Positions 1,472 to 64,000 of a stretch of 64,000 nt of DNA are shown one piece after another (within the stretch, counting starts at the first letter, position 1; every line of letters begins with the position of its first letter). The notes beneath the pieces were generated by a model, which was given only the letters and a program-made list of their open reading frames with translations, did not search any database and was not told where the DNA came from. The translations under genes and the position numbers were made by a program. The stretch covers positions 23,996,001-24,060,000 of the forward strand of contig CM119371.1 of NCBI GenBank assembly GCA_051294905.1, in the 5' to 3' direction. The stretch is from Botryllus schlosseri. Taxonomy: Eukaryota.

Positions 1472-3300
1472 GCGTACACGTTCATTTGCGCCACGACATT
1501 ATTTAAGTAATTTCAGTCCGTCACCGTTTGTAATGTTTCGGACCACTTACAGTTCTCGCTCTGTCTCATCATCGGCCACCCTCGTTTTTCATGCGTTCAT
1601 AGCTTGAACCTTGCTACCGACTTTTGGCTTGGCCTACTTTAACTCCGGGCTTTCGGAACACTGCTACGGCAGTTAGGTCCGCGATGTGGCGTCCAGGGAA
1701 ACCTCGGACACATATAAACTTGGTAGAGCCGAGACTCGTACCAACGCAACAGCCCCTCGCTTCCCTAGCTGAGGGAGGTGGTGACTTCAAAAATATATGG
1801 GATATCAAATTATCCTCTGGTGGCCTGTTAGTTATTACTTTGTTTTATGTTTTTTTTTTTGCGACCTCCCGTCTCCTATATAGTCAAAATATATTGGAAT
1901 CGTCCGAACGTACCATATTAAACCAAAAGTAAAACTGCATACGCTATTAGAAATTGGCATTTCTGCACGGGGCGCGTCATTTTCCTCTGTGGACCTTCGG
2001 ATGACATTTGTACTATGATCTCAGATTGGAATCACAGTATTATTCCGCGGTGGTTTTATTTGGTAATAATGTGTCATGGCGCGGTAATGGAAGGTGCTGA
2101 AATGCCTATTTTGTATGAAGGATGCTTATTTTCTTTCTTAGTGCTGGGAGGGTGCTTATATTAAAGTCAGGGTATCAAATCTTAATAAATCGCGAAGGGG
2201 CTACTCTAGATGTTTTCGAGGTCGCGATTTTTCCTTGGTGCCGGGGTCGGGAACTAATGGTTCACGACCCATATATATGGCTCTTTTGGGTATAACATAT
2301 GGGTCTTTGCCATTTTTTAAATCTTATACTGAATTTGTGAATATTGCATAAACTAGTAAGTGAATTTTTATCACGGTCCGTAATAATTTTTCTCGTGGTA
2401 GTATAACCATTTCTTTGAATGCTAAAGGTAATGCCGTATCCATGGTTAGGGACTCGTACCCTCTTTTTCAAAATCCTAAAATTTACGTTGCTGTCACGCC
2501 GGCGATCAATATCCGAAGAACCCCACGCGAAATCTAGGATTGCAGGATACGCTGATTCATTCAAAGAGAATAGCAAACATAATGACGCCTGTATGTCATG
2601 GGGATTTTGAATACACATTGTCTTCCTGATCTACGGTGATAAATGTACTGCCATAGAAGTCACAATAACAAACTCAAATTACAAACATGGCCATAGCTGT
2701 TAAAATGCGAAAAAATCTAGGGGTGTAGCGCATCGTTGTATGTCATTGTATTGTTGTGGTGACCATCATGTGACCAAGATATCAGTAATACCAAAACAAG
2801 TATTAACTGCAAAAAAACGTGTAAATAGTAGATTCACACTTTTGCTGTTATCTACGTCTGTTGGAAATGTTCATTGTCTTAAGCTCCGAAAAATATCACA
2901 TTACTCTCACTCTAATACGGTTAAAAAGATGTCACGTGCAAACGATTTATTTAACTCCAGTATCGATTGTTCAAATACGACAACCAGCATGATTAGTACG
3001 AGTGTTCACAGTGAAAATGTGTCGCAGACAACAAATCTCATGTAGATAGTCAGAATGAGTGATACAATGACGTCACAGATTTGAAATTGTGACGTAGCAT
3101 TTGATTTACATGTATGGCTCTTTGGGAGTTAAAATGGTAAAATAGGGCCGATAAGGCTCTTCGGGCGAAAAAGATTCCCGACGCCTAAATAGTGAAATAT
3201 TGTTGATTGGAAAATTTCACTCTTCCCTCATGTTTCGAAATCGGACGTATTGGCCACCAATGTATTTCATTCTACGCGTATTTCTTGAACATGTGTCCAG

Positions 3301-3463
3301 GAATTTTGTTGCGCACTGCATGTCGCGAGTCTCGACCGATCGAATATGAAGAGATTAATTTCGAAAGATCTAAACGAGAATGGAATGGAATTGACTAGAC
3401 AACTTTTTTACGGATTGATTCTCAATGATAAAGTCACCAATAAAATGAGGAAGTTCCTGACGG
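3301..3463 (+). CDS. NLR winged-helix/HD2-region exon (EFCCALHVASLDRSNMKRLISKDLNENGMELTRQLFYGLILNDKVTNKMRKFLT)
   Basis: tccag|GAA acceptor, G|gtaag donor (phase 1); NLR-like (Q)EFxxAL and ELTRQLFYGL motifs. Confidence 0.75.
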
Positions 3464-6400
3464 GTAAGTTTATGTGTCCGCGTAATCCGAATGAGCTTAC
3501 ATTCTTGCACATATTTCACCGTGTTTTCGCTCTGATAGTAGTGATGGTAGAATGCACCACTCACCTCCCCGTATTTCCAGAAAGGGGGACAGTAAGATGC
3601 AATACTGTTCTGTACGAAGATAAGACCCTAACTATTAATATGACCGACATTTTGCCTCGCCGAATTTCAGATTAACCGAGTCCAAGCAAAATAATATAGA
3701 TTGGTGACACCGCCAATCCAAAATAAACCGTACCTAAACTATCTTAGCCATAGGATAATAAATAAAATTATATTTGGATAATTTCGTATACAGAAACCGC
3801 CTTCTATACTCGGTCGAAGTTGACTATATTTGCTTAGGTATGTTATATGCATTTAACATATTAGTTTGAAAGGGTAGAATCCGCTCATATCATGGCAAAT
3901 AGCGACGTTTCACAATACTCGTTTGTATGATTTAATAGATGATAAAGCATCCCATCAGCAGCCCTGTAATAAAGGTTACCGTCATAAGATATGTTTGCGT
4001 GTAGAATTCGAACGGCGACGCGTTTTAAAATTCATTAAATCGTTTCCCTTCATCAGTATTAATACTTTCATGGCCTTGTATGACTGGCAGGTCACAAAAC
4101 CCCAACCAGGGATTGTCGCGAGATGTTGTTCGAAGAACTTCTTAACATGGTAACTGATGCTACAATACGGGATATTTCAACTGTTCGTCTCCTGAACGAG
4201 TGCGGGGACGACACCATAAAAAGAATGAAGCAACACGTTCAAAGAGTTACAATCAATTCGAGAGACCTGCTTTACACTGACCAAATTTTACTACTAACAA
4301 TGATAAAACGACTATCTCCCCTTAGAGCGACGTTCGCTGAGCAAATAGATCTTGATCCATTGATGATATTGTATGTGAAAGATTGTCTCGAATTTGCTGA
4401 TATTTTTGAGGTATGTGAAATTCTATCGAATTAAGTTTTCGTAATTAAATATATATTTTATTCTCCAAAATTGTTTCGTTATGATATATTGCATTTAATA
4501 AGCTTATATTGTGTAAAAAGGCTGGTTACGAAATTATGGATTCCGTCAAACAAATGCATTTCGCTGATGTGATGACAATCCTAAACCAGTCGAAATTACG
4601 GTACGTCCGGCTTCGATGTGATGATGATGTCAAACTTTTATTTCTCACTGATTGGATAAAAAGATCACAGGTATTCCATTTTACGTATTTAGTTGTCAGA
4701 TATAGATAGGGACTTTAGCAAAAGACTATGCTATGAATCTCCAAATGCTAATATTTAATATATGGTTTGGTAGTTATGAATGGAATGACACTGTTTCCGA
4801 ATATGAGTAGCCCACGGATCCCGGGATCAATGAAATTGGCAATTGTTAACGACAATATACGACCTGAGCAGGCGGAATATTGGTGACGATAGGTTCAGAC
4901 TTCTAGTATTTTGGCCAGTGACCCCACTATATTCATTAATACAGTAACTGATGACAATCTTGTAGTTTGGTGTTATTACTGTAATGTCGGATGCCTACAC
5001 CCTCTCCCTCCTTCTATCCTTCTGCTTATTGTCGCACTAACTTTTCTGCACGTGTCACGCATCGACTATAGTAGCCTACTCAAGAAACTTAACCTAGACA
5101 ACCACAATATAAAAAGTATAACAATATCGTTTTCATACGATTCGAATCCATACTTTGAGAACCAATATGATATTATCCTAGAATCTGGATGATTAAAAGA
5201 TCATCTCCTTCTAATTCAGATTCGCCTGGATAACCTTGGCTTGTTAAGAATAACGCAAATTGACACATTGATATGTTTATTCAAATTACTGTCGATACAC
5301 TCATTAGCAAATCTGCGTTTGAACATAAATTCTGGCATAATTGGATCACAATTCAAAGATGTTATTACGTCTCGTGGACCGATAACAAGGAAGGTGAGAA
5401 CTGGATTATTCAATGTTACTACTAAATTGCACCATGTTGTTTGTTTTGGGAATGGTGTACAAGTACTCTAGAGCAGTGGTTCTCAACCTTTTTCACCCCG
5501 CGGACCGGTAAAATTACAAAAAATGTCTGGCGGACCGGTGAACTTTCAAAATTGAAATTAAGCCAAAATGTAAAATAGCCTATGCCACCGTTTATTTGCA
5601 ATTATATGGTGTTACAAAGTGACATTTTCAGGGTTTTGATCGTAATTAATTATCTTCATATGATTTTATGGTAGTGAGTCTGCTGAGTCGAGGTAAAATT
5701 GCTTTAACCAGATAAACGTTCTACCACCGAGAGTCGTTTATAGTCTTTCGTGCCGAAGGCCGTGGGTTTAACCAACAACGCCAACTAAAAATAACATTCG
5801 TCCCTTTGACAATATCGAGAGAAGAAGCATTTCGGAGTCGAACCAAGCACCTTGTCGTGCTACCTTGCTATTGCCCGCTGGCACCAGACGCAGGCTACTC
5901 TGGCAACTACGAACACAACACGTACTGCAAGAAAACACTTTACAGCAGCGTGGGCCATTCGCAAATCCGGGCCGAAAAAGCACCTCGTCAGCCGACCCCT
6001 AAAAACGCTGGTTTTGGGCCCCCGCAGGGCGATAAGCCAGATTTCAGGAGGCTTCGCCCCCATGCCCTACATTTGGGTCGATGTTTTCCCCTATACTTGT
6101 GACCACATTCATTCTACTCTGTAAAAGCATAGAGTTTATTTTATACCTTAGTCGCGCCGATAGCGAAGATTTTCGATCATTCATGACTGAATGGGTTTTC
6201 TCGCAGCCGAATTTTTGGCACACCTTTCGGAGTCACATGTTAGCCTCAACTTCATTATGTGTTGGTACGTCGTGGCACGGTAATGGCTGATGTCAAAATC
6301 ACGATTTCTATAAATCATACGTATTTCTCGGAGAAGGGCACCTAATAATCAAGAGATTTAGGAACACTAAATCGCGCAAAGCGCGAAAAGAAATTGAAAA

Positions 6401-12400: not shown

Positions 12401-15400
12401 AATAAATAACTGTTGTAACATTATATCGTATTGTATTATTGTATTGTACTGCAGCCATACTGTATTGTTGTATTGTAATAATTGTTGTAATAAATACCTG
12501 ATAGGGCCTGTTTGACCACAGCTCGCCATTCGTGTAATGGCGTCACGCCTCAGTGGGAGCTTTGAAATGGGTAGACAGCAAGGTTCAAACCTGATTGGAA
12601 TCGCTGGCCTTTTGTCTGATACATCAGGCGAGCGTGAGCAGCGATGATTTTCCGAGGTTAAGTGTGAGCCCAGGACCCCGATTCCATACACAGAACACCG
12701 ATTCCATGCGTGGGTTCAAAAAAGTAAGATACATCGTTATAACGTGCTGCAGAAGGTTTGAGACAGCTGTATAGCGAAATTGGTAAGAAAAAAGCATATT
12801 AACTGATGGGGTCAATTTGATCCTACCTTAGCCATCGTGTAACGATACCCACCTTAGCAGTATACGGTTAAATTCACGGCATTCGGCGCTAAATACTGTA
12901 AACTACTCTCGGCGGTAGCACGTTTATCTGGACACGGCAATTATAGGTCGACGCAGCAGTTAACTACCGTAAAATCACATGGGTGCGAGTACGAACATAA
13001 TTAATAACGATCTAAACCCTAATATCACTCTCTAGCACCACATACTTGAAAAAAAACGATTGCATACATTACATTTTGGGTTGAAATTAATTTTGGAATG
13101 TTTACCGGTCCGCCAGATATATTTCGAAAATTCACCAGTCTGCGAGGTGAAAAAGATCGAGAACCACTGCTTTGGAGCAGTGATTCCCAACCTTTTCCAC
13201 CTCGCGGACCGGTACAATTTCAAAAAAATATTTGGCGGACCGGTGGATTTTCAGAATTTGATATCAACCCGAAATATATGCTATATATTACTACCTATAA
13301 TAACATTTATTCTTATGCTACTTTCTTTATCTTTGTTTCATTATTCATAGTAGTTGATATCCCATGTTGTACTCCGCTTCCACTCGAACGCCATTACAAT
13401 GTCAATGCTATGAAACACTTTTTTTAGGTTGACCAAATGACGATTGAAGATAAATCAATGACGTATGAAAAAGTTGAAGCTTATTTAGGTATTCTGCGGC
13501 GCTGCAAATTCACGATGCTGGGTCTGGATAAATGTGATCTCACCGACAAAGATGTGGACATGATTTTACAATTTTGTCGCGATCACGGTATTAAGGTAAG
13601 GACTCTGCTTATAAGAAACTTTTCTATGCTAAAAGAGAAAATTCATGAATATATTAGATACATTTGTAAATCCGAAAGCTGAGTTAACCGACGTGCTAAA
13701 ATTTTCAAAATCGTTCAACTGATTTATTGATGTGGCGTATGGACTTGCTAACATCTGCTTCATTCGCCATCATATTCTTAAAAACCAAACTATCTAACAC
13801 CATATTCAATTAGATCAGGGGCGGGCAACTACTCACAGTCGGCGGGCCGGATATCGCAAAATTAGGTATTTGGCGGGCCGGATTGCCTAATCGATAAATT
13901 ATATTTGCCCATATACAAGGAATATATCGTATTAAATGGATGTATTTTAACGACAGCAATGTCACTTCAAAGCCATTTCTCGCATATAATGACGTAGAAA
14001 TTGTGGATTTGAAAATAGCATTGTTATACCGGCGTCGCCATGTCCGCTTCTGTCTGATAACACGCGGTACAATCCTTAATTAAGATTTCAAGGCGTTCGA
14101 TAAACCCGGAAACCCAAATTTACCAAGACATCATTTCATTAGGGTTGAGTACATCGTAAATGCGGATAATGCAAGTCTGCACGCTTCGACTTACGCGTAA
14201 GCTCTACTCTTGCACGCTGCGCACACACGTCCAGTCACTAAAATTTGACGTAGTAAGCAAGCAGTGGGAAATCTCTGCAGACTGGGGCCGCGGGCCACAT
14301 TATCCTGTAAGACGTAAAGCTGTCCGCCGGCCGGACAAAATCCCATTACGGGCCCGCGGGCCGTATATGTTGCCCTTCCTTTGAATTAGATAAAAGTAGT
14401 TGTAAGAATGTAATGTAGCCCCAGATTGCAAGGAATAGTGTGAGCCGGCTATGCCATATCATTGCTAACAATTACACTAAAAAGCAGCAATCGTCCCGTA
14501 ACTTCTATTCATTATGTCACAAGTCCATATCAAGAGACACAATCAAAAAAGGAAAATTGCTAAAACTATAATAAATAACGAAAATTGTAATTGTCACGTG
14601 CTAGCTTGACCATAGCAGATTACCACAATTTAAAGCTGCTACGTTGGGACTTGACCGTAGCAAATTTTGAAAAAAGCGTGAGCTACTTTGATCTTAGAAA
14701 TACTCTGACATTATTCGAGCGCAACCATCATTCCCGAAAAACCTGACAGTAGACATTTACATACACGTTTACTGCAACATAGCAATTTTTGTGCACCCGT
14801 AACCAGTAAAATTCTACGAAAAGCTTATTGCGCGTTATGCTGATCGTGCTTAACGTGTCTGTGACTCCAGTATTGGTTATCCAGAATTGAAAATGATTTT
14901 TTTTATCCAACAGGCCATTAAATTAGAGATGCATCACTTACAGTCCAGAACAGTGAACTGCAGGGTCACCGTTATCGTGGTATTCCGCCTTAAAAGGCTA
15001 CATTGTTAATGATGTGTCATTGATTTTGGAGGTGTGCCTGTTCCCCACCAGAAACCCCTTAATCCCCCACGAGAGGGACGTTATCCACCTGTTGAGAACC
15101 ATTGATCTGGAGCTAATTAGCAATTTAATTAGCCTCTTTAGATTCATCGTAAAAAATGGATAAGAATTAGCATTTGTTTTAGCAGAAGCCAACAACCTTT
15201 GAAAATTTGTTGAACGGTCTAAGCTGCAAAACAAATGAAAATACTGTCCAGTATTTCTTCGTTGTATCGAACGATGTTCTGCATCAATCATTCAATGATA
15301 ATTTCGGTTGTCTAAGAGATGAATGTCAGGAATTTGTGCGAGAGATCATGTGCTTTTGAGTAATCGTAACTGTGAAGTTGCAATGTTATATTGTTATTCA

Positions 15401-18400
15401 GCTTTCCGAATTGTTGATATCGGATGGGACCATGAAGTCAAATGTCTATTGTGAGGTCGCGAATATTGCCAGTATCACGGGTTGTTCGAGAGTATTTTTT
15501 GGAAACTGCGATCTGACGAGCCAGAAGTTGGAATGCTTTACGGCAACCTGCGTGCAAAATAAAAAATCGGCGAGTTGTGAAATTTGCCTGTTACAGCTGT
15601 TATTATATTGTTATTGTTATATTGTGATTTCCCAAATCAAAATGGAACTGTGACGTAGCAGGAATTTTGCGACTGCGTCGCGAACATTGTGATTGGCATT
15701 TGTGGTATTTCCCATGCACAATCACATCACTATTACCACCATTCGAATAAACAATATATGAAATGGACCATAGCCTCAACTTTATTTGTAAAGCAATCGT
15801 GTATTCTAAATATTCCTTATTTTATAGCTCTCTAGTCTGAAAATAGTGGATACTAAAATGCATGCTGAACTTTATCGTGAAATTGCTGTTACACTCAATG
15901 CTATCGGTGGCAACGAGATGTGGTTCCAAACCTGTGAATTGACGAGATCGAAACTTTCTGAATTCTACATCGGTTGTAAGGACAGCGATCTTACCGTAAG
16001 TTACTTTAGTCTAAAGAAAACGTAACGCGAGACAAGCTACATAAGTCGCGAGAAAACGACCGGGCGCACGCTACGAGAAAGATTAAAATACGTCCATGAG
16101 AATACCAAAAAGCTAGGACCCAAGAACAGTATGATATTCGTATCGTGGAGCACAAGGCCTAAAATACGATAAGCATCACTGTCTTGTGAACATTAATACT
16201 CCCGCGTTGCAGTGTAATAGTGCTGGTATAGTTAGTAATCCCTTTGCAGGCCAAGTCAATCCATTTTGACTGAGCATTGTGTCGCTCGCGCTCTACGGTA
16301 GGCTATTCTTTCCCTTGGCAACTATAATTTTTATGTTTGCTCATACATATTCCGATAAACTTCTGAACCAAATATTTTCTTTTGTATTTCGTTCGAAGAT
16401 TTTTATCATATCCGCCAAGTATTTCAGTCGACTCGAAATTAATGTCAGAAATTGCAGCGAGAAATTTAATGTTCTCCAGTAATCATTACTGAGAAGTTTC
16501 ATTATCATTCAGCTTTCCAAACTGTCGATATGGAACGGTGCGATGATGTCAGATGTCTACTGCGACGTCGCGGATATTATCAGTATAACACGATGTTCGA
16601 CAGTAGTTTTCGGAAACTGTGATTTGACGCAACAAAAGTTGGAATGTTTCACGGCAACATGCAAGAAAAAACAAATTTCTGTTAGTATGAATATTTGCTG
16701 AAAAATTGATTGGTACACAGATCAGGACATGAAAATGAAGCTCAGCAATATAATGATTTAGTGACGATAATATAAGTTTCTTTTGGGAAATTCATAGTTA
16801 ACCAATCGCATCGCCATGGATATTAATTATTCAATCATATTTTCCAGCAGTGGTGGCTCGTCCAATAGGGCAACTGGGGCATTGCCCCACCTAAAATTTT
16901 GTTCAATAATAAATATTTACCATTTATAGACGCACAGCATTCAAGATATACCGAAATCACAGCAAAACGTGCATACGTCTTGTGCTTTCGCTGGTAAATG
17001 CCCATCGCCCATACATAGCGAAGGCTTTGCGAAGAGCGAATTCTTTTCTGTGTTTTCGCTTTGTGAATGCCTAGTCGGGGCTTGCCCCGGTAGCACTCAT
17101 AACAAGCTTTCGCCGTCGGTTCTCTCAAAACCATGCAACAAGAAAGAAACGGTGACTTACTCTCTCCTATTCATAAAATTACTGAGAAAGTTGGGGCAAC
17201 CTTCCCTTGTTGCCCCCAAGGTGTGATGTAACAATCGTATCTATATCTGAACTCGGTTACCGTCATATGCGTTGAGTCGACCTTTGCTGGTATAGGTCGA
17301 TTTTGATGGTGTTTCGCACCATGATAATTCGTGAAACTTGGTATGTTATGTCGTGAAGGTGGTATTTAACACTGCTGCAAGTTTCAGGCTTGCTACCTAA
17401 AGATTAGAGTAGTAATTGTGTTTCCGAGTTTACTGTGTGCTGATCCATCATGTACAGCAAACAGATTTTACTCAAAAGGCAGCATTGGTCTCCATTGGTT
17501 TTGACTATAGAAATTAAACATGGAACGGCAACGACCGATTTTGCAGCTTCGTTCCGCTCCGCCGAGGCTGGAGTGGAGAGTGGTTTTGCGTAAGCGACTG
17601 TAGGATTTCTGGCAATCCAAATGCTATCTTCCCGAGCACAGAAATTATTGAATATGGTCTTGATCGAAAGCCACTGTTGCACCGATTCCGAAATTATAAA
17701 TTAAAATAATGATCAGGCACTGATCCACCTAGAATCCGTCCTCCAAGTCGAAATATCGGCATTGTTCGAACAATCGGAGAGTCGCAACGGGTCATTGTTA
17801 TGGTCATTGTGTTGCGGTTACCCGATTGTTCTGAACAATGCCGATATTTCAGACTTGGAGGACAGATTCTAGCTGGATCAGTGCCTGATCATTATTTTAA
17901 TTTATATTTTCGGAATCGGTGCAACAGTAGCTTTCGATCAAGACCAGATTCAATAATTTCTGGGCTCGGGAAGATAGTTTTTGAATTGCCAGAAATCCTA
18001 CAGTCGCTTACGCAAAACAATTCTCCTCTCCAGCCTCTGCGAAGCGGAACGAAGCTGCAAAATCGGTCGTTGCCGTTCCATGTTTAATTTCTATAGTTTT
18101 GACAATGTTCCATACCGAGATCGGTCTTGATATTTGATACGCTAAGTTAGTATCGACCGCTGTTACAAGTTTCAAGTTTTTCACTGAACTATGTGGGTGG
18201 TAATTTTGTTTCCTCAGTCGAGTGAGAGTCGACTCGTCATTTATCGCCAACAGATTTACGCCAATACCGCTGTTGGTCTCAATAGGCCTTTTGCAGGACT
18301 TCGATCACGTGACTAGGTCGCATAGCAACCACAAATTGGTTAGCAAGCTACTTTCTCGCGCACCTGCTTCAGTGCTAAATATCGCATATGGTACTGTTGA

Positions 18401-36400: not shown

Positions 36401-39400
36401 AGGGCTAAGAAGGATTACATCTTAATTTTGTGTGGTGCATGTGTATCTGTGCACGAGAAAAAAGAGACAGGTCCGAATTAATTAAAGTCCCCAGTGAATA
36501 TATTTGTTAAGAAAAAAACAGGAAAATTGCTAATTCGGTAGCTAGTGTTAGCTTTGATCATTTTCTACTATTTTCACGTGCTGAAAATATCAGAAGTAAA
36601 CTATGTGAAAAAGTATGTAGTGTACGGCAAACGGTTTCCAGAATGGGATTTGATTATTATCGAATAAAACGGCGTTCGTTACCTTGGTTTTGAAGAACGC
36701 AATGTTCAGATAGTATCTGCAGTCAATATTTACGGACCATGATTGTATTCGTATTGCTAAATCTACAGTCCCATATAAACCGGAACTCATATTTGATTAT
36801 TTCACAACGTTCAATCGTTAATATTCTAACTGTAGACATTCTATTAGCGATCATTATATTCTATTCGCCATATCGTCAATAGTATTTCTTTTATTGAAAG
36901 TTTATGCAAGCATGTGGTATTACATATATGTGTGCAATATGTCGACAATGAAAATAAAAAATATATAAATTTATTGAGTAGATTGATATCGATAACGGTT
37001 ACAGTAACAACTATATTTGAAAGAATGCTAACTAACTTTTATTACTTTGACGCTTTGTTATCTAGAATGGCTGATTGATTATATACCTGACTGTCAATTG
37101 AATTGGGTACCTAAAATGTATTTGAAAAACGAACGGTTGGTTCGAATTCACATCCATATGTTGAGCATGATCAATTAATCATATGTGACTGTGTGGTGCC
37201 TTTAGATGGTTGTGCAAATTGTCAATATAATTTAGAAATTATTGACTTATTCTTTATTCTGGTCTGCATTTATACGAATTCATTGATGCTTAGTTAGCAT
37301 ACAATTCACCATATCATTGGATATGTCGAAAGTATATTATATCAATGCGAGTTAGAATAATATAATATAACCAAATCAAAATCACTTTTGAGTATGATAC
37401 ACAATAGTTGTTTCATACAGCTCTCGAGACTGAACATCATGGATAGTACAATGCTTCCAGACGCTTATTACGACGTGGCAAATATCGTCAAAATCACCAA
37501 ATGTACTATTCTGTATTTCCGATATTGCGATTTGTCAATACAGAAATTGGAAAGCTTGGGTAAGGGTTGCAAGGAAAGTCGCATCTTGGTAAGTTGATAA
37601 TATTAAGAAACCTAATTTAGACAAAATTTTGCGTTCAAGTTTAAGAAACAAGAATTTAAATCGAAGCAGCGAAGAATGTAGAGTATATTGTCTCAAAGTG
37701 ACATGTCCATGTGTGACATGTCCAGTTTTCAAATTTTGAAGGTCCATTTTTAAAACTTTTTAAAGAAACGGGTAGAGAGCCACTTTTCAAATTTCATTGA
37801 TGCCTTTAGCCGTAAGAATGCAATATCGTGACCAAATAGACCACACTTTTACTAACCATTACTTGTTTACGTCAGTACAACTATAGAGTATGACTGGAGT
37901 GACGACTCGATTGTTCTCCCATTGTTAGCCGGCAGAATGGTCACGGTCAGATGGCTGCACCCAAAACATGATCGCTCAGCGCTTGTTTCTATGGCGTCCA
38001 AGGCGATTCGTCATGTATTTCTTGAAGCTGCGTCGGATTTAGTTGGACAGTTCAACATTTAGGTAGCGGTGGCGAGTGGTTATGACTAGTGAATATTACC
38101 GTGTAGCCTATGTTACATTTCTCACGAGATTGATGTGATATTGTGGCTTTGATCCTTTATAGAGTTTGCTACGTATATAAATATAATGACAGAAGGTATA
38201 TAGAATATCTGGTTCGTGTACATTGGCTATTGTGAGATGAATTCATGGAAAGGACGACTGAAGAGTACTACAAAGTGAACAAGTGGAAAGATCTCGAACT
38301 ATATCGATATGCAGTTCGCAATAGCTTTGATTGAAAATATATCCTATATTAACTGCAGAAATTCGAGTATGAATATAACAAATAATATCGCAACAGTCTT
38401 GTAGTCTTGTGTGCCTGTCCGATAACCGAAGAAACTTGAGTATGACTAGAACCAGAGCCTTGTGTAATGTCAATGTTCTGCTTGATCTCGGTTCACAATA
38501 GTCAGAGCTTACTCCTTGGAAGTATGCAAAATCGCACTTGAATGGAACTCGTTGTCATTGCCAAAAATACCCTGGAATTCGCTTGGAAGACCTCTGCCAG
38601 TGACATTAGTAGACAGCCAATGCACCACGTCAAGGTTTCGACAAACGCATTTTTTTCCCTTTTTTAGGTAGGGAATCTCAATGTGGATAGGCAGCATTTG
38701 CCACAGAGAGAAAAAACTACCATACTAACACTACCAGAAACTACATTCGCTTCATTTGCTGCATCTTTTCTTGGTCATGGATTCCTAGCCGACTTTTGTC
38801 CAAGGATTTTGATCAACATAGGCTTATGTTGTATTGGCACCTTTCCCTCTCTTTATAGCCTTACGCTGGCATAAACGCTGGCCTAAGGCATTTACTGAGT
38901 AACTGACTTGGCCAATAACTGGATTCCTGCTGTATCTCATCGAAGACCGCTGTTAACTTTTAACATTCGTGAATAATATTAATGAATGTCAACTGAAGTT
39001 ACCCAAGATCCAAATGCTGCTTCCAGAACATCTTGTGTTAGGACTCTGGAAGATACTGATTCCATAACACCATTCAAAAGCCGAATTGCTAGCTTGCCCA
39101 TATTCTTGGTCCATATTTGTATAGAATAGGGTTGCCATACGTCCGGAATTTCCCGGACATGTCCGGAATTTCACTGTTCAAACTGGCGTCCGGGAGGAAT
39201 TTCTAAAATATGCCAAATGTCCGGAATTTTGAAGACTTGACGTAGGCTCATAATTTTTTCGTAAATCAGCATAAAAACAATATTTTTTGGGAATAGGCTA
39301 TTTATGCTGATGCATGATATTTTTTTTTCACGCTGCGCGCGATTTACTATCACATTTATTGATTTTAATATGGAGACTACTACCATCGCAAAATGTGCAA

Positions 39401-45400: not shown

Positions 45401-48400
45401 AGCGTATAGTGCTGGAGTTTTAATTACAAAACCCGTTGCTTCATACCGGTGATGTTGTCTACATCGGAATATTTAGACCCCAACATCTCGCGATCCACCA
45501 TACGTTAAGAACGACTGTGCTATGATAACCAATGTCGACCACGCAGTCAAGATTCAGATTTGAGATATCGGCGTGAACTTGTAAAAACGTCAGACTTACT
45601 GAAATTTCACTCTGTTCTAGATGGGATTTTCATCGCACCAAGTCGAATGATTTGTTTCATTCGGCCGTTTACCATTCACTATGACTAGTTAATTGGTCAT
45701 CTACAACAGCAGGCCTATAAACTACTACAATGCGTAAAATGTCCAATTATAGGTTCACCGACAGGCAAAAAAAACTTTTGAATTCTTAAACTTCGTTAAG
45801 TAACGACAGTTCCAAACAGATGTGCTCCACATCTAACATTTTGTGAAGCAACGCCAAATTAAAAAGTTAAGGTCAAAAGTTTTTCATATATATTTTTTTA
45901 ATGTCAGAATATGCCAAAATTCTGATTTTGATAGGTCAAAAAATAAGCGCCCGATTCATAATAAAGGTATATTTCATTACGTGATATGAATATAACAAGA
46001 TCTATACATGTTGATTTCAGATTCCTACACTTGGGATTGATTGGTCGTATATAACTGCAACTGATGATCATATATCAATTCTGTGCGACTTGATGGCGGT
46101 TGTTGGGGAAATGCTGGCTCTATTTAATTTGGAAATTGATGCTAAAAGAAAGCAAAGACTAATAGATACACTTCACCTAGAAAACTCTACGGTCAGATTC
46201 TAACTCCGTACCGAGTGTTTAATTTTTTATTCACTGCTACCTTGCATTGGTAATCCATCCACTTCTCGAGTCGGCAGGGAGTACTCTCGTTACGCTCGGC
46301 GACGGAATTCTTTTGATCTACAAACTGGAAACTATCAGGATCACTCGCCTTGTTGCGCGTGTACCTGTACAAGTCGTTAAAACGTCGTTTCGAAAATCTT
46401 TATACCGCAGCTGTACTATCGTCGGTTTTCATCATTTAGTACTGATGAACTTATCGCATCGTTGTCCCATGCGGAAACTATAAATTACCAAGTTTATGTA
46501 TCATAGGGTTATCATATTTTGGAATCGGGAAAGGAGGACACTTTTTTCAAAATATCAAGACTCAGGATTGTGAAGTAAAATTCGGAAAAATTATAAATTA
46601 AAAAATATAAATTTTTCCCGACATTGCGGTTGGTTGACTAAAAAGGACTAAAAAACGGTCAACTTTCCGGCCCAACTCCCGAAATACAGGTTATCTCCCA
46701 CATTCTCCGTAGGTTAACTGAAAGAAAAGTCGTCACATTTGTTTGAACCAAGAATTTCTCATTTAGCGTCAGTCAAGTCCATTCACACTACAATCTGTCC
46801 ATTATATTTGCTCTAAAACCTCTAAAGGAAGACGAATTGCCAAAAAGGAGGTCATTTAGGCGTCCTCGAAGGAGGACATCTTCAAAAACCCTAAAAAGGA
46901 GGACAAATCCTCCTAAAGGACTATGGTAACCCTAAGTATCAGTTCCACTGTGGTCTCTGCCCCGAAAATTTCAATTACCTCTTTACCTCGGAATCAAAAA
47001 TGCATAAATAGGCCTACTACACACGCACGTCCTCGTCGTCCAAGCATCATATATGATCGACGCGAAATACGATGGCTCTATCAAATAAGCCGAACTTAAA
47101 GGTATTCAAGAGTATATGTCTCGCCGGCTATCCGCCAGTCGACGAGCGTGTCCACATTCAAGTCGACACACAAGCAACTTCTGCTGAATGAATACTTGTC
47201 AGCCCTCTACTTTACCGGACCACGACCGGACATATCGATCTCGTCTACCGTCGCATTCCACCTAATTTCGTCGCTTGTCATTTATGTTGACTTGATCACT
47301 TTTCATTCAGTGTGCATGCCTAATTTTAAAATCGCCTACGCCAGCTGTGTGTCTGATTTCAAAGACCACTCCAGGCCGTCTCGACACCTTCCTATCTTTC
47401 ATTGTATCACTGTCTTGTGGTGTACCGAAAAGATTAAATTGTTAGCGATAAATTGAATTGAATTGAACATTACTGAAGTTCCCTCTTTTAGCGACAGGTT
47501 TCCTTCACTATAGTTTAGACACAACCAAATCGCACGTCTGATTGCGCTTGGTTCACAACCCTTCTCCATTATTATGACCAAAGGCGATTTGTGCCAATAT
47601 TTGGGCTGGCTTTTCAACCCCGAAATTTGATAAAAGCCGGGCCAATCGAAAGATATTGCGTTTTTTTTTCGGAATTGCCGGTTATTCGTTGCCCATAGTT
47701 CTCGCAGCCCCAAAATAATAGTCGGTGCGAAGTACAACACACCCCGAAGAAACATTGCACTAGTGATGACGATTTTTGATATATTTTATCGCTTCTATAC
47801 GGGCGTTGAGTCCTGGAGCGATGCCGATGTGGTATCCTTGTCTTGCAAGGTTCGCACTTGGTCCGCGATATGGAATTACCGCGAATTCTTCAGCCTACCC
47901 GGCTATATATCGAGATCGTTCTAGATCGACTTATAGTAAGGGAAACTTATGAAAATCTGTGAACTATATTGTTACCAAACAATTTCTTCACCAATATGTT
48001 TGTTAAGGTGTGTAATAACATGTGTTAAAATGTTGAAGTTCAACTCTTGTGGGAAACCCCCCAAAAAAGCTGTTAAATTTGACGAATTAAAAAAAATTTA
48101 AAAAAATTAATAAATATTTATCGCCCATAAGTAACTTAGGACGTGTTTAATAATGGTTTTCTATGATTCTCAATCGATTGTTAGCACTTATAATTCACTA
48201 CAGGCTCTGCTTTGTGAATTTGACGAATTAAAAATTAAATAAAAAAATAAAAAATAAAAAATCTTTATCGCCCATAACCATAAGTAACTTAGGACGTGTT
48301 TAATAATGGTCATCCATGAACCAAATAATAAATAGAAATTTTATTCTCCTGTAGAAAAGCGGTTAGTGGCTGGAATTGAACCAAATTTTTGTGTAGGCTC

Positions 48401-54400: not shown

Positions 54401-55666
54401 TCACCATGTTTCGTTTCAACCGAACATGACACTTACCAAGGTTATCGTTTTGTGTGAAAATTATATTTTAACCAGATACCAACTGAAGTCGACATCTTAT
54501 CTTTCGACTGCGGTCAGGACATTGTGGACTACCTACCAATTTATATAGAATCGGTTGTTCGGACTATTTAATTTGCGGCGAATGCAGCGTGATCGACACA
54601 GCTAAGCACATAGTTGAAAACGAGCATTAAATATGTTTTCCACGTATCTTTTTGAATACATTATTGGAATGAGCTACCTATCCCGCTAACCCTACGCCGC
54701 CTATACTTTCGATATAGGGAGTGTCGACCGCCGCTGCTCAAATCGAACGAAGTTCATTTAGTTACCGCTTGATTTAAATAACGTCAAGACCGTGAGACAA
54801 AATGGCATAAATGGCGATAAATAACACTTCAGTTTCCAATAATATTAATACCTATAATATTGATTGTTTCTCATCTCCTAACACTTTTTTGATGTGAAGG
54901 CCATTTTGTGCAATAATAATAAATAGTAGTGTAGGCCTATTTGATGTGCTGCATTACATGTGTATCGTGTTATATTTTTGTATTTATGACGTCACAAAAT
55001 TTGTGGATCCGCGGAGGCTTGAAAACTCGCGTAGGTGTTCTGCGGGCTAGTGTAAGGGTTAAGACCCACTGAACTAGAAATATGTCGTAATCCACCAATA
55101 TTATAGCGCAAACCCATCGGTCGCAGTGCTATAAATCGGGGAGTATGAACTAGTTTATTCTCCACGCCGTGGATAAAACGAAATTCATTTTATATCGATT
55201 ATACAGAATCAACATTATTACTGCGATTTAGATTTCTTCAATCTGCATTTATATTCTCTTGCAGCAACATCATGTACCATTTGACCATTCGTGCGTCACG
55301 GCTTGTTGCTTGACGTAAAGGGTGCTGTTATATGTGAAATCGTATTTACCACAGTACGCTTTTGATCCGGCGAATATTATTGCTGAACCGTGTAGTTCAT
55401 GGATGGTGATTTCATATCTCGTGCCATGTCTTCGACAACAACTACATTTAAATCAGCTTGCTTCACTGTACTCGATCGTATATATCTTCATTGATAACTT
55501 CATGTATTTGTTTGTTTTGAAAGCCTCGAGAATATATAACGGAATTACCTTTCTTTGCTTCATATATTCCCTGATAGGATTTCGTTTTTGTGTGATTCTA
55601 CAGATACAATCTATACAATTTCCGGACGGAAGTGAGGTTTACAAGCGTGCGTCAATGCGGAACTAG
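3301..55666 (+). CDS. Multi-exon NLR-like (NACHT-LRR) gene, 3' portion; the 5' NACHT exons probably lie upstream of the window. Model: 3301-3463, 4091-4410, 4503-4670, 5220-5393, 13428-13595, 15402-15569, 15828-15995, 16513-16680, 34949-35116, 37421-37588, 46021-46191, 55604-55666 (about 688 aa)
   Basis: All exons are stop-free, start after AG and end before GT (one GC), and phases join (1/1, then all 0). First exon resembles the QEFxAAL motif and 'RxFLxGL' HD2 region of NLRs; downstream exons are 56-58 aa two-LRR-like units. Confidence 0.75.
4091..4410 (+). CDS. NLR HD2/LRR transition exon (GHKTPTRDCREMLFEELL...LLNECGDD...FADIFE)
   Basis: ggcag| acceptor in phase 1 matching the previous donor; GAG|gtatgt donor, phase 0; overlaps ORF 4123..4434. 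Confidence 0.7.
4503..4670 (+). CDS. 168-nt phase-0 exon, degenerate LRR
   Basis: taag|CTT ... CAG|gtattc; open frame of 56 aa. Confidence 0.65.
5220..5393 (+). CDS. 174-nt phase-0 exon, degenerate LRR (IRLDNLGLL...LANLRLN)
   Basis: ttcag|ATT ... AAG|gtgaga; open frame of 58 aa. Confidence 0.7.
5474..6826. mobile_element. hAT (Charlie-like) MITE, 'gcggaccgg' family copy 1
   Basis: TIR cagtggttctcaacc; TSD ctctagag/ccctagag. Confidence 0.85.
7190..10080 (-). mobile_element. Degenerate, 3'-truncated RLE-type non-LTR retrotransposon (NeSL/Utopia-like): N-terminal zinc fingers and start of RT
   Basis: ORFs 9737..9994 and 9258..9707 carry C2H2/C2HC fingers; ORF 7373..8455 has SSPGSDGLIYGFWKRLDPKGEIL...IPLVWRSSRVILIPK...NWRPKALSRTLYKIY (RT domains 0-2); boundaries approximate. 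Confidence 0.8.
8465..8930 (-). mobile_element. Probable 3' end of a 5'-truncated LINE with AATAAA and (CT)n tail, inserted in the RLE element
   Basis: (GA)n at about 8465-8487 next to tttatt; interrupts the RLE ORF; 5' boundary uncertain. Confidence 0.4.
11945..12867. mobile_element. piggyBac-like non-autonomous element
   Basis: Flanked by TTAA; imperfect TIRs (actg.aaggtggg) with subterminal ggggtcaa..ttga.cc repeats. Confidence 0.6.
13428..13595 (+). CDS. 168-nt phase-0 LRR-like exon (VDQMTIEDKSM...LGLDKCDLTDKDV...GIK)
   Basis: ttttttag|GTT ... AAG|gtaagg; LxLxxCxLT motif. Confidence 0.8.
13816..14383. mobile_element. hAT (Charlie-like) MITE
   Basis: caggggcgggcaac / gttgcccttcctttg; exact 8-bp TSD aattagat. 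Confidence 0.8.
15402..15569 (+). CDS. 168-nt LRR-like exon, type A1 (LSELLISDGTMKSNVYCEVA...FGNCDLTSQKLECF)
   Basis: attcag|CTT; ends TCG|gcgagt (GC donor at the position where paralogous exons have GT). Confidence 0.7.
15828..15995 (+). CDS. 168-nt LRR-like exon, type B1 (LSSLKIVDTKMHAELYREIA...FQTCELTRSKLSEFYIGCKD)
   Basis: ttttatag|CTC ... ACC|gtaagt; not in the ORF track. Confidence 0.85.
16513..16680 (+). CDS. 168-nt LRR-like exon, type A2 (LSKLSIWNGAMMSDVYCDVA...FGNCDLTQQKLECFTATC)
   Basis: attcag|CTT ... TCT|gttagt; clear paralogue of 15402-15569. Confidence 0.85.
17506..18095. mobile_element. 590-bp near-palindromic (foldback) MITE, P/Galileo-like, copy 1
   Basis: About 280-bp inverted arms starting tatagaaattaaacatgg; TSD gttttgac on both sides. 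Confidence 0.85.
18284..21045. mobile_element. ISL2EU-like (PIF/Harbinger group) DNA transposon, degenerate, about 260-bp TIRs
   Basis: TIR aggccttttgcaggacttcg...; AT duplication within a palindromic tcaATtga site; family assignment rests on termini and TSD only. Confidence 0.65.
22590..22705 (+). pseudogene. Dead type-B LRR pseudo-exon
   Basis: gaag|CTC TCA, a 1-nt frameshift, then DVEMYAEGYNEIANTLKYIG**KMCFNN*EFT, aligning codon for codon with B exons. Confidence 0.75.
23927..24987 (-). mobile_element. Gag-only mini LTR element nested in the Gypsy protease
   Basis: About 213-bp direct repeats 23927-24140 and 24776-24987 with tgtg(c/t)ga...tcgcaca ends; PPT gggggaa; internal gag-like ORF (EESVDVFLADLKRLAKLAG) on the - strand. 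Confidence 0.9.
26590..27747. mobile_element. Charlie-like hAT MITE inserted in the Gypsy integrase
   Basis: TIR ca(t/g)gggtgggcaaact; exact TSD atctagtc; removal restores NHLV-KATRPWERISIDFK. Confidence 0.92.
28950..30280 (-). pseudogene. Decayed hAT (ZMYM1-like) transposase
   Basis: Fragments CVINVAHTSEFN (cf. HCxAHxLNL) and SLCDTRR (cf. LCxTRW); many stops; boundaries approximate. Confidence 0.4.
31007..31067 (+). pseudogene. Dead, truncated type-A LRR pseudo-exon
   Basis: atcag|ATT TCG TAA CTG TCG ATA TGG GAT AGT ACG ACG TCG GAT ATC TAT (IS*LSIWDSTTSDIY versus LSKLSIWNGAMMSDVY); cut by a hAT MITE starting at 31068. Confidence 0.6.
32980..33084 (+). pseudogene. hAT C-terminal dimerisation-domain fragment
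   Basis: SAAAVERSFSILDKILSKD...NVEKYL. Confidence 0.6.
33881..34717. mobile_element. Tc1/mariner-pogo (Tc2-like) MITE
   Basis: TA-flanked ccgtaattttcc / ggaaaattacgg; subterminal gggtgcgtattatacatggg repeats. Confidence 0.8.
34949..35116 (+). CDS. 168-nt LRR-like exon, type B2 (LTTLCIFDAKMPAETFREIA...FQNCELTTRKLSEFFIGCKD)
   Basis: ttttgtag|CTC ... TCT|gtaagt; paralogue of 15828-15995. Confidence 0.85.
35713..36310 (-). mobile_element. Charlie/SPIN-like hAT remnant with decayed transposase N-terminus
   Basis: caggggtgggcaa end; KIWSTEYWYTGVRGEPIILVSSEQAPVEY...EKH resembles the GTF2IRD2/SPIN zinc-finger region with Cys residues lost. Confidence 0.4.
37421..37588 (+). CDS. 168-nt LRR-like exon, type A3 (LSRLNIMDSTMLPDAYYDVA...FRYCDLSIQKLESL)
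   Basis: atacag|CTC ... TTG|gtaagt. Confidence 0.85.
37882..41986 (-). mobile_element. P/Galileo-like DNA transposon, about 250-bp TIRs, 7-bp TSD, two decayed coding regions
   Basis: TIR tatagagtatgactggagtg...; TSD gtacaac; TQDVLEAAFG at 39009-39038 (-); C2H2 finger and LEYIGG...GLKSPS ORFs at 40722-41678 (-). Confidence 0.75.
39127..40272. mobile_element. hAT (Blackjack-like) MITE nested in the P-like element
   Basis: tagggttgccata / tatggtaacccta; exact TSD gtatagaa; gtccggaatt repeats. Confidence 0.85.
41994..42583. mobile_element. 590-bp foldback MITE, copy 2 (opposite orientation to copy 1)
   Basis: Same sequence family as 17506-18095; TSD gtacaac. Confidence 0.85.
42781..44726. mobile_element. 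hAT (Charlie-like) non-autonomous element
   Basis: cagtggttcccaacc / ggttgggaatcactg; exact TSD ctgtacac. Confidence 0.85.
46021..46191 (+). CDS. 171-nt phase-0 exon, probable terminal LRR/cap (IPTLGIDWSYITATDDHISILCDLM...ENST)
   Basis: tttcag|ATT ... ACG|gtcaga; open frame, size and phase match the series. Confidence 0.6.
46504..46934. mobile_element. hAT (Blackjack-like) MITE
   Basis: tagggttatcata / tatggtaacccta; ggaggac repeats; imperfect TSD (gtatca). Confidence 0.7.
47934..52161 (-). mobile_element. Academ-family DNA transposon with decayed transposase
   Basis: tagtaaggg...cccttacta termini, long TIRs, 3-bp TSD tta; IPRLSGFHLLKSYIGPIGDNMEYSGL, FLPVIEGDP and DQPL motifs. Confidence 0.85.
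49161..49708. mobile_element. hAT MITE rich in gactcgagtc palindromes, nested in Academ
   Basis: cagggtt / aaccctg ends; TSD cttttacc/ctttaacc. Confidence 0.75.
53136..54103. mobile_element. Charlie-like hAT MITE, inverted relative of 26590-27747
   Basis: TIR caggggtgggcaaact; exact TSD agctagaa. Confidence 0.92.
55604..55666 (+). CDS. Putative last coding exon (IQSIQFPDGSEVYKRASMRN*)
   Basis: T-rich tract then ctacag| acceptor, phase 0, TAG stop, AATAAA signals downstream. Confidence 0.45.
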   Translation: MQSIQFPDGSEVYKRASMRN

Positions 55667-63920: not shown

Positions 63921-64000
63921 TGATCTGTGAGGTGACAATATTTAAATTGGTCAGAATGAACGCTGAGTGTTTTGAGAACAATAAGTCATCAATAGAGTTA

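Follow-up and report, generated by a model that had tools for sequence, protein, structure and literature searches.

Vertebrate NLRs are already known to have phase-0 LRR exons with two LRRs apiece (PMC6642158, in the available portion of its text), and the preliminary description of the locus presented here had correctly named symmetric LRR exons of such size as established in that group. Lineage-specific tandem expansions, like the one reported here, are known for the NLRs of sea urchin, amphioxus, sponge and coral and for ascidian NACHT-LRR genes that have no N-terminal domain. Among the invertebrate examples, the LRRs of the sponge AqNLRX1 and of a Capitella NLRC are spread over multiple exons (PMC3879445, available text), and Acropora has about 500 NACHT/NB-ARC loci (PMC4083563, available text). 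In the accessible parts of the literature on expanded invertebrate NLRs, no description was found of the cassette family and exon structure set out below.

The window, a stretch of 64,000 nucleotides from Botryllus schlosseri, contains twelve exons (3301..55666, + strand) of what is very probably a NACHT-LRR (NLR) innate-immune receptor gene of ~1084 codons with a cassette-built sensor. Joined by script, the window exons comprise 2067 nt, encoding 688 aa and a stop with zero internal stops (Table 1), and 9 of the 12 are phase 0/0 with lengths of 168-174 nt, exactly the set of phase-compatible exons put forward in the preliminary description. All exons have AG acceptors, and all but the one ending at 15569 have GT donors. 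The table also lists their conservation in two paralogues, parA and parB. Exon 46021..46191, if left unspliced, runs to a stop at 46203. The weakest piece of the gene model is exon 55604..55666, for which a similar peptide is found in both paralogues, but with omega >1 and with the stop lost in parB. Between exons, at 40722-41693, lie ORFs on the minus strand that encode a C2H2 zinc finger.

Table 1. Exons of the putative NLR gene and intronic features of the window (a slash within a motif marks an exon border).
Feature	Position	Strand	Length and phase	Evidence
Exon after the NACHT exon; completes the FSHQTMQ/EFCCALHVA motif, winged-helix region	3301..3463	+	163 nt, phase 0 to 1	CAG acceptor, CGG/GTAAGT donor; 91-93% aa identity to two paralogues without gaps, omega 0.18-0.50
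Helical-domain exon (LLNECGDDTI...)	4091..4410	+	320 nt, phase 1 to 0	Splice sites present; 86% aa identity in parA and parB, omega 0.46; in-frame stop in parB copy
Divergent LRR-like exon	4503..4670	+	168 nt, phase 0/0	Splice sites present; gap-free and open in both paralogues, omega 0.19-0.24
Divergent LRR-like exon	5220..5393	+	174 nt, phase 0/0	Strong splice sites; open in both paralogues, omega 0.61-0.71
First clear cassette, two RI-type LRRs	13428..13595	+	168 nt, phase 0/0	Profile E 6e-27; AG/GT flanks; omega 0.38 vs parA
Type A cassette, GC donor	15402..15569	+	168 nt, phase 0/0	66% aa identity to cassette 16513
Type B cassette	15828..15995	+	168 nt, phase 0/0	Omega 0.85 vs parA
Type A cassette, unit used for folding	16513..16680	+	168 nt, phase 0/0	
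Dead cassette (pseudo-exon) in 18.3-kb intron	22589..22756	+		Profile E 6e-4 over positions 8-26; several stops in projected 56-codon frame, no AG acceptor
Broken Ty3/gypsy-like LTR retroelement in the same 18.3-kb intron, not part of the gene	22811..28704	+		Pfam: aspartyl protease, RVT_1, RT_RNaseH, integrase zinc-binding domain, rve; ORFs in different frames
Type B cassette	34949..35116	+	168 nt, phase 0/0	86% aa identity to cassettes in two paralogues
Type A cassette, last full one	37421..37588	+	168 nt, phase 0/0	Omega 0.12 vs parA
C-terminal capping unit	46021..46191	+	171 nt, phase 0/0	Splice sites present; open in both paralogues, 95% and 63% aa identity, omega 0.29-0.42
Proposed last exon, 20 codons and stop	55604..55666	+	63 nt including stop	AG acceptor; weakly supported

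The identity of the gene is indicated by an exon that lies outside the window, 3.5 kb upstream of exon 3301 (C1:23994626-23995813 = L009:8626-9813), where the preliminary description had predicted that a NACHT P-loop exon would be found. The ORF L009:8626-9999 matches Pfam NACHT (PF05729) with E 2e-11 and 44.4 bits (cut-off 26.7), and includes a Walker A or P-loop motif (GEAGAGKST) and a Walker-B-like motif (LLLTIDGLDQ); its match to NOD2_WH (16 bits, E 0.013) does not reach the cut-off of 23.1. The exon ends in phase 0 (...SHQTMQ/GT), and the motif FSHQTMQ/EFCCALHVA straddles its junction with exon 3301, which matches NLRs of the tunicate Styela clava directly C-terminal of their NACHT domain (tblastn), and the linker exons align to the equivalent region of the Styela NLRs. 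An N-terminal effector domain (CARD, PYD, Death, DED or BIR) is typical of NLRs but not obligatory, NLRX-type members having none. A Pfam scan of the 28 upstream + strand ORFs of L009 detected no such domain, tblastn with Styela proteins including their Death regions gave no match in the 20 kb upstream, and none of the 116 Death matches genome-wide falls between 21.50 and 25.11 Mb of C1.

The repeat motif discerned in the preliminary description (LxxLxIxDxxM ... xFxxCxLT) is real and far beyond chance; aligned, 21 cassettes give the consensus LSxLxIxDxxMxxxxYxxxAxIxxxTGCxxxxFxNCDLTxxKLxxFxxxCKxxxxS. When all stop-to-stop frames of the window are searched, the six clear cassettes prove to be homologues (each E ~1e-27 to 1e-30 with their own profile), and the only further matches of that profile at E <0.01 in the window are the decayed + strand copy at ~22600 and a minus-strand fragment (63875-63985). 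The same register of 168 nt is kept by 6/6 clear cassettes here, 11/11 in parA and 4/4 in parB, with an AG acceptor in 20/21 and a GT donor likewise in 20/21. The description of most symmetric exons as two LRR-like halves holds for the six clear cassettes; exons 4503, 5220 and 46021 have no match to the six-cassette profile and resemble LRRs only on visual inspection. Exon 46021 does have a weak match (E 0.013) to the C-terminus of the Styela protein P0006 (residues 1061-1102 of 1118).

Profile and structure predictions agree on the class of the repeat. The 21-cassette profile matches, among PDB sequences, ribonuclease inhibitor (4per_A, E 2.8e-7) and designed RI-like LRR proteins (E 2.8e-4), and the six-cassette profile matches the repeats of ribonuclease inhibitor at seven places spaced 54-61 residues apart. 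An AlphaFold2 model of cassette 16513, built with the 21 aligned cassettes, has a pLDDT of 91.7 and consists of two strand-helix units (strand 3-6, helix 13-26, strand 30-33, helix 40-52), with the exon border two residues ahead of strand 1. The LRR solenoid anticipated in the preliminary description is predicted at greater length by the 419-aa cassette array of Styela P0003, a homologue with a NACHT domain only 33% identical to that of this gene, which folds into 15 strand-helix units (pLDDT 86.2, pTM 0.83) and has 120 Foldseek matches at E <= 0.001, led by ribonuclease inhibitor (3tsr_E, E 6.9e-8) and NLRP3 (7vtp_A, E 2.9e-7), then NLRP9 and NLRC4. Since the cassettes fold as beta-alpha LRR pairs in these models, and since their profile matches ribonuclease inhibitor, they are predicted to be divergent LRRs of RI/NLR type, two per exon, with phase 0 at both ends. 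The term 'atypical', applied earlier to the Cys-rich repeat, overstates the case, because the half that contains the Cys (xFxNCDLT) lines up at regular intervals with ribonuclease inhibitor's canonical repeat. A reading in which the locus is no NLR and its repeats are no LRRs, but a set of chance or repeat-derived open frames, has a negligible probability: Pfam gives no LRR family in any window exon (nor in the Styela arrays) and the single 56-aa cassette model has no Foldseek match at E <= 0.001, but both folds are confident, the profile match to ribonuclease inhibitor is significant, a NACHT exon lies directly upstream, and splice sites and frames are kept in the paralogues with omega <1.

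This gene is a member of a family that evolves by birth and death. Eight NACHT loci of 69-100% identity, all on the + strand, form a 1.4-Mb cluster on C1 (23.45-24.82 Mb), and a further 19 loci are 45-58% identical; genome-wide, the cassettes have at least 132 and at least 144 matches at E <= 0.001 for the two query types. Stop codons occur in 2 of the 8 clustered NACHT exons and in the linker of parB (Table 1), and family copies therefore do die. Intact cassettes number 11 in parA, where an A+B block has recently been duplicated, 6 in this gene, and at least 4 in the 100 kb of parB that were read. Because these counts differ and one dead pseudo-exon lies in this gene, exon gain and loss are real on an evolutionary scale, whole cassettes having been gained and lost among close paralogues, in keeping with the earlier proposal that the recognition surface can be changed in this way. 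As each cassette is a whole structural unit and begins and ends in phase 0, a genomic segment that is duplicated in tandem or deleted would add or remove LRR pairs and leave the frame intact.

The locus might instead be a silent or dying member of this family, a young pseudogene whose exons are real relics but which gives rise to no functional receptor; this is unlikely, though it deserves weighing. In ~27 million RNA reads, sampled from three bulk runs (about 6% of each) on unspecified tissues of the same species, 5 of the 8 exons examined are in zero-depth bins and the other 3 in low-depth, repeat-containing bins, and none of the four joints listed is at a predicted intron, the junction-read check that the preliminary description had set. 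This lack of reads or joints on the exons would suit a pseudogene, as would the GC donor at 15569 where both paralogues have GT, the dead cassette and broken retroelement within the 18.3-kb intron, the smaller number of cassettes than in parA, and the stops in sister copies. Yet the RNA sample is small, and weak expression is common among NLRs; GC-AG introns are a working minority class, and this one has a good context at +3 to +6 (GCGAGT). All 13 exons, the NACHT exon and the 12 of the window, are open and compatible in phase, the 688-codon join being free of stops. Compared with parA, the NACHT exon has omega 0.16 (P 1.4e-13) and the six cassettes omega 0.46 (27 synonymous and 50 non-synonymous changes, P 0.003). 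The changes private to this copy are biased toward synonymous sites (45 to 37 non-synonymous, omega ~0.22, P 4e-11), although gene conversion between paralogues could distort such branch counts; purifying selection has thus acted on this copy's own branch.

Alternatively, the exons may be divided between two or more transcription units; the gene could, for instance, stop close to 16680 or 37588, with exons 34949, 37421, 46021 and 55604 further downstream as a separate fragment or the leftovers of a neighbouring copy. Introns of 18.3 (the longest), 8.4 and 9.4 kb set these exons apart, no RNA links them, the last exon is unconstrained, and the minus-strand zinc finger ORFs sit between exons. 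The idea is nonetheless improbable, as collinearity with parA extends from 2.1 kb upstream of the window to ~57.3 kb with identical exon order, the alternation of A and B cassettes runs on across the long intron, no other NACHT exon occurs before C1:24164808, and exon 46021 resembles the Styela C-terminal cap, which an NLR array needs.

A single NLR gene thus remains the preferred reading, in which the large upstream exon would encode a NACHT NTPase, two exons a helical linker, and nine phase-0 exons the C-terminal sensor. Membership in the NLR family suggests an immune-sensing role for this gene. By analogy with known NLRs, the LRR horseshoe may keep the NACHT domain inactive and bind ligand, and its release may lead to nucleotide-dependent oligomerisation. 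Combinatorial use of the symmetric cassettes through regulated or stochastic in-frame skipping, in a family whose cassettes number well over a hundred, seems very improbable. The skipping proposed in the preliminary description has no support: no RNA read or joint falls on the exons, and none of the Styela isoform pairs compared shows the skip of a whole cassette, their differences consisting of alternative 3' ends, a truncated N-terminus or 1-3 residues. If combinatorial use did occur, receptor surfaces would vary between single cells or individuals of an animal that lacks antibody-based immunity, and the family might bear on self/non-self recognition in a colonial ascidian. The design of vertebrate NLRs, two LRRs to a phase-0 exon, extends to a large, fast-turnover NLR family of a probable ascidian tunicate, where it is caught at work in near-identical paralogues that differ by entire cassettes. 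Pfam LRR models miss this repeat family, and domain-based surveys would therefore score its genes as 'NACHT only', a point useful to annotation and comparative immunology that leaves the understanding of NLR construction unchanged.

Among proteins with names, the NACHT domain is at most 33% identical to any, and the relatives are all uncharacterized proteins of Styela clava; since every one of them comes from this tunicate, the invertebrate origin proposed earlier is probable. The closest, XP_077976001.1 (P0003), XP_039248824.1 (P0005) and XP_077966284.1 (P0006), differ from this gene in species and subfamily, with NACHT domains 32-33% identical (E 8e-50 to 5e-46). Their parts are ordered (Death x3)-NACHT-linker-cassettes, the same as here from NACHT on, whereas the N-terminal Death domains (Pfam E 7e-10 and 1e-10 in P0003 and P0006) have no counterpart found here. 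The linker motif reads LLHECGPDVI in Styela and LLNECGDDTI here; the Styela cassettes are 56-57 residues long, as here, and the profile from the window finds 9 of them in P0003 and 30-31 in P0005, many with Ala at the last conserved Cys position (GA rather than GC). The C-terminal cap is alike in both. Ribonuclease inhibitor (RNH1), the top match both in PDB sequence and in structure, has the same repeat type and period, and the C-x-x-L-x-L-x-x-C-x-L-T half of the cassette aligns with its repeats; it has no NACHT domain and stands outside this gene family, so the likeness concerns the repeat class only. Vertebrate NLRP and NLRC proteins such as human NLRP3 differ in having PYD, CARD or other effectors, of which none was found here; the repeats of this gene are missed by Pfam LRR models. 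They share with it the NACHT NTPase, the helical linker and the C-terminal RI-type LRR horseshoe (here predicted), and their LRR exons, of 171 nt (28+29 residues) as against 168 nt (28+28) here, likewise carry two LRRs with in-frame ends and a border fixed at the beta strand.

The candidate NLR gene lies in a window of about 40% G+C, within a Botryllus schlosseri assembly of 495.5 Mb in 219 contigs, where short open frames and retroelement ORFs are numerous, as expected for an animal genome. A motif screen and a tblastn search of the window against itself identified six mutually similar frames on the plus strand, each containing a phase-0/0 exon that encodes two leucine-rich repeats (LRRs) and is termed here a cassette, and splice-site reading supplies the remaining exons of the model listed below. 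Concatenated by script, the 12 exons give 2067 nt (688 codons and a stop, without internal stops) with phases of 0>1, 1>0 and then ten times 0>0, which reproduces the twelve-exon, 688-residue chain of the preliminary description. Searching all stop-to-stop frames of both strands with a profile of these cassettes recovers each of the six at E 1e-27 to 1e-30; apart from them, just a decayed plus-strand copy near 22600 and a short stretch at 63875-63985 on the minus strand score below E 0.01. The nine symmetric exons described previously are all present, and six match the profile; the other three (those starting at 4503, 5220 and 46021) are unmatched by it and are LRR-like by eye only. An alternative reading of the second cassette as a 174-nt exon (15378-15551) was rejected on account of its poor acceptor and because both 92%-identical paralogues of the gene, parA (C1:24714001-24814000) and parB (C1:23585001-23685000) on the same contig, use the exon of the 15402 type with its donor at the 15569 position. 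Past the gene end, two short cassette-like fragments on the minus strand (63875-63985, E 1.5e-4; 61609-61719, E 0.02) probably represent the dead remains of a further copy.

Exons of the candidate NLR gene within the window
Feature	Position	Strand	Length (nt)	Boundaries
Exon	3301-3463	+	163	splice-site reading
Exon	4091-4410	+	320	splice-site reading
Exon	4503-4670	+	168	splice-site reading
Exon	5220-5393	+	174	splice-site reading
Cassette	13428-13595	+	168	AG/GT, in the frame's own phase
Cassette	15402-15569	+	168	AG acceptor, GC donor
Cassette	15828-15995	+	168	AG/GT, in own phase
Cassette	16513-16680	+	168	AG/GT, in own phase
Cassette	34949-35116	+	168	AG/GT, in own phase
Cassette	37421-37588	+	168	AG/GT, in own phase
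Exon	46021-46191	+	171	splice-site reading
Last exon (proposed)	55604-55666	+		splice-site reading

In the 20 kb upstream of the window, a frame of 457 codons (L009:8626-9999) contains the motif GEAGAGKST and matches the Pfam NACHT model at 44.4 bits (cut-off 26.7). The NACHT exon closes with ...FSHQTMQ at L009:9813, where a GT follows in phase 0, and translation resumes with EFCCALHVA in the exon at 3301 after an intron of 3487 nt; with the start of the NACHT frame taken as codon 1, the gene has 1084 codons. An upstream NACHT P-loop exon was the preliminary description's own test of an NLR, and its presence therefore bears that reading out. No death-fold domain was found when 28 upstream ORFs of L009 were scanned with Pfam, tblastn with Styela clava NLR proteins that include Death regions gave zero matches upstream of the NACHT exon, and none of the 116 matches of a genome-wide Pfam Death search is near the NACHT cluster. 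Upstream of the NACHT frame, collinearity with parA extends for just ~0.7 kb, with three short patches farther up. The genome-wide Death matches are mostly open frames of about 100 codons with equal scores, many of them in oppositely oriented pairs 5-15 kb apart (for example, C4:20656892-20657095 on the plus strand and C4:20667428-20667631 on the minus strand), and look like a repeated element carrying the domain rather than ordinary genes.

Pfam LRR models match none of the exons, and single exons searched against Pfam as a whole gave nothing below E 0.01, only chance-level matches. Among PDB sequences, the top match of the six-cassette profile is ribonuclease inhibitor (RI; E 0.0012), the chain of which is matched at seven places 54-61 residues apart, always through the C..L.L..C.LT half; with a profile of 21 cassettes (six of the gene under study, 11 of parA and four of parB) the E-value improves to 2.8e-7, and designed RI-like LRR proteins come next (E 2.8e-4). 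The AlphaFold2 model of cassette 16513-16680, computed with the 21 rows (pLDDT 91.7, pTM 0.74), has strands at residues 3-6 and 30-33 and helices at 13-26 and 40-52, i.e., two LRR units, and places the exon border two residues ahead of the first strand. Foldseek returned nothing at E <= 0.001 for this 56-residue model, and the chains of NLRP3, NLRP1 and an NLRP5 complex that it listed at E ~0.8-1 were therefore not counted as evidence. For the closest named homologue, XP_077976001.1 of Styela clava, a 419-residue stretch of cassettes folds into 15 strand-helix units (pLDDT 86.2, pTM 0.83), and the model of this array has 120 Foldseek matches at E <= 0.001, headed by mouse ribonuclease inhibitor at E 6.9e-8, then human NLRP3 at E 2.9e-7, and continuing with NLRP9, NLRP2/5/7 complexes, NLRC4, and plant and animal F-box LRR proteins. 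Together, the profile matches and predicted folds argue that the repeat is a divergent RI-type LRR. Cysteine accounts for 23 of the 336 residues of the six cassettes; in the RI-class consensus LxxLxLxx(N/C)xL, as a passage of PMC6642158 gives it, the conserved Cys of xFxNCDLT falls on the canonical Cys/Asn position, and the earlier term "atypical" was therefore an overstatement.

The locus and parA are collinear over a span that runs from 2.1 kb upstream of the window to ~57.3 kb; most of the blocks are 80-92% identical in DNA, and parA has extra internal duplications. The model exons are open and gap-free in both paralogues, the sole exception being one stop in the linker exon of parB. Intact cassettes, among which types A and B are distinguished, number 11 in parA, where the A+B block is present in a second copy, six in the gene under study, which also has a dead cassette at 22589-22756, and four in the part of parB that was read; therefore, cassette number changes between very recent duplicates, as the proposed exon gain and loss would have it, and always by whole phase-0 units. 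An in-frame stop in the linker exon of parB and a TG in place of the AG acceptor of one of its cassettes (parB position 7172-7486 and L029, C1:23595001-23605000) make parB look like a pseudogene.

In the comparison of the gene under study with parA, the NACHT domain has an omega of 0.16 (46 synonymous and 30 non-synonymous changes, P 1.4e-13). The linker and divergent LRR exons range over 0.18-0.61, and the six cassettes, when pooled, reach 0.46 (27 synonymous to 50 non-synonymous, P 0.003). When only changes unique to one of the three copies were counted, the other two agreeing, the gene under study had 45 synonymous and 37 non-synonymous changes (omega ~0.22, P 4e-11; parA 0.23, parB 0.34), so that by this count, which gene conversion could blur, it has been constrained on its own branch. 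Positional orthologues differ by 2.0 changes per site in the beta strands versus 1.07 in the helices, a trend only, given the small sample. The proposed last exon has omega > 1 and its stop is not retained in parB, and read-through of exon 46021 meets a stop at 46203; 55604-55666 is thus only a candidate 3' end.

The NACHT frame has seven further copies on contig C1 (69-92% identity, 23.45-24.82 Mb, all on the plus strand), of which two contain stop codons, and 19 copies at 45-58% identity on C3, C5, C9, C12 and C15. Single-cassette queries match at least 132 places for type A and at least 144 for type B (E <= 0.001); the totals are minimum values, since scoring covered 150 of ~300 candidates. 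They share the NACHT clusters and typically cover the full 56 residues. Five equal-scoring cassette copies at C1:24431735-24456505 are strictly periodic, with 5.6-7.7 kb spacing. Multi-exon blocks in sister NLR genes have been amplified in tandem very recently, giving strictly periodic arrays of A and B cassettes with equal scores at C1:24431735-24458775 (spacing ~5.6-7.7 kb) and C7:28566268-28585981 (~6.3-6.6 kb).

None of the runs listed with the NACHT exon is recorded as RNA. Bulk RNA of the same species label (three raw-read runs, about 6/100 of each, 27.2 million records in total) and one contig set were mapped on 3200-23199, the exons from 34949 onward lying outside this stretch. Five of the eight exons within it fall in zero-depth bins in all three runs, and those at 5220, 13428 and part of 16513 in low-depth bins shared with repeats. 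Nearly all mapped reads are partial fits, most at 95-99% likeness, and so are read as repeat-derived. None of the four joints listed is at a predicted intron; the preliminary description had taken a lack of junction reads linking the exons as evidence against its finding, and on 3200-23199 the result counts against it in that sense. Because the sampling was thin and the tissues unspecified, the result is taken to mean that no expression was seen in the sampled runs, not as a refutation. At 18541-20541, within an intron, one run (X21) reaches depths of up to ~8-14 with many fixed differences from the window, which is read as transcription of related repeat copies at other loci rather than of this one.

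The introns contain several putative mobile elements or remnants. In the 18.3-kb intron, a Ty3/gypsy-like LTR retroelement (22811-28704, plus strand; aspartyl protease, RT, RNase H and integrase) is broken over several frames, with a gap between the zinc-binding and core parts of the integrase. A palindromic repeat, which may be a foldback or MITE-like element, occurs there (17404-18137) and in the 8.4-kb intron (41806-42630), with open frames nearly identical on both strands (TWNGNDRFCSFVPLRRGW...). Two minus-strand open frames, of 151 and 128 codons, occupy 40722-41693, and a C2H2 zinc finger is weakly matched in the 128-codon one (E 2.6e-4); they have 91.6% DNA identity to a parA block placed out of order there, and are possibly a transposon gene within the intron. 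The 398-codon open frame in the 8-kb intron (7373-8569, minus strand) has zero Pfam matches at E <= 0.001 and by eye is similar to the N-terminal region of a non-LTR retrotransposon ORF.

Outside this genome, none of the 3464 candidates in a word-based search with the NACHT ORF, made against proteins of 801-2285 aa, reached E <= 0.001; exhaustive HMMER searching with the NACHT frame brought 152 proteins to that threshold, nine of them at E <= 1e-30. In two look-ups, the named members were all "uncharacterized protein" of Styela clava, five run-assembly clusters being nameless. The nearest ESM Atlas cluster of the NACHT domain, mostly Cnidaria-labelled (score 0.97), was set aside since the named HMMER relatives are all from Styela clava and so point to a tunicate. 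XP_077976001.1 and XP_077966284.1 combine Death domains and a NACHT domain with the same linker as the gene under study, and in XP_077976001.1 and XP_039248824.1 the same cassette, 56-57 residues long, recurs in long arrays, in which the window's profile finds 9 and 30-31 repeats, respectively, and Pfam detects no LRR family. The profile also reaches more distant Styela NLRs, and these give weak LRR_1 or LRR_6 matches.

The locus is a well-formed NLR gene of known architecture, and its NLR family is left "uncharacterized" by public annotation; in the open-access titles, abstract openings and passages searched on tunicate and ascidian NLRs, the cassette family is not described. The domain order of the gene model, the exon design and cassette turnover are demonstrated here, and diversity through splicing of the cassettes found no support. 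By analogy with the family, the LRR horseshoe would keep the NACHT domain inactive and sense a ligand, and activation would lead to oligomerisation. Large NLR expansions are reported in corals and other invertebrates (PMC4083563; see also PMC10236652), and multi-exon LRRs in one sponge NLR and one Capitella NLR (in a passage of PMC3879445). Passages of PMC6642158 describe the LRR exons of human NLRP3 as "exactly 171 bp long"; every one of them "encodes two LRR" and has its border at a set point of the beta sheet, and this exonic modularity is named there as a precondition for alternative splicing.
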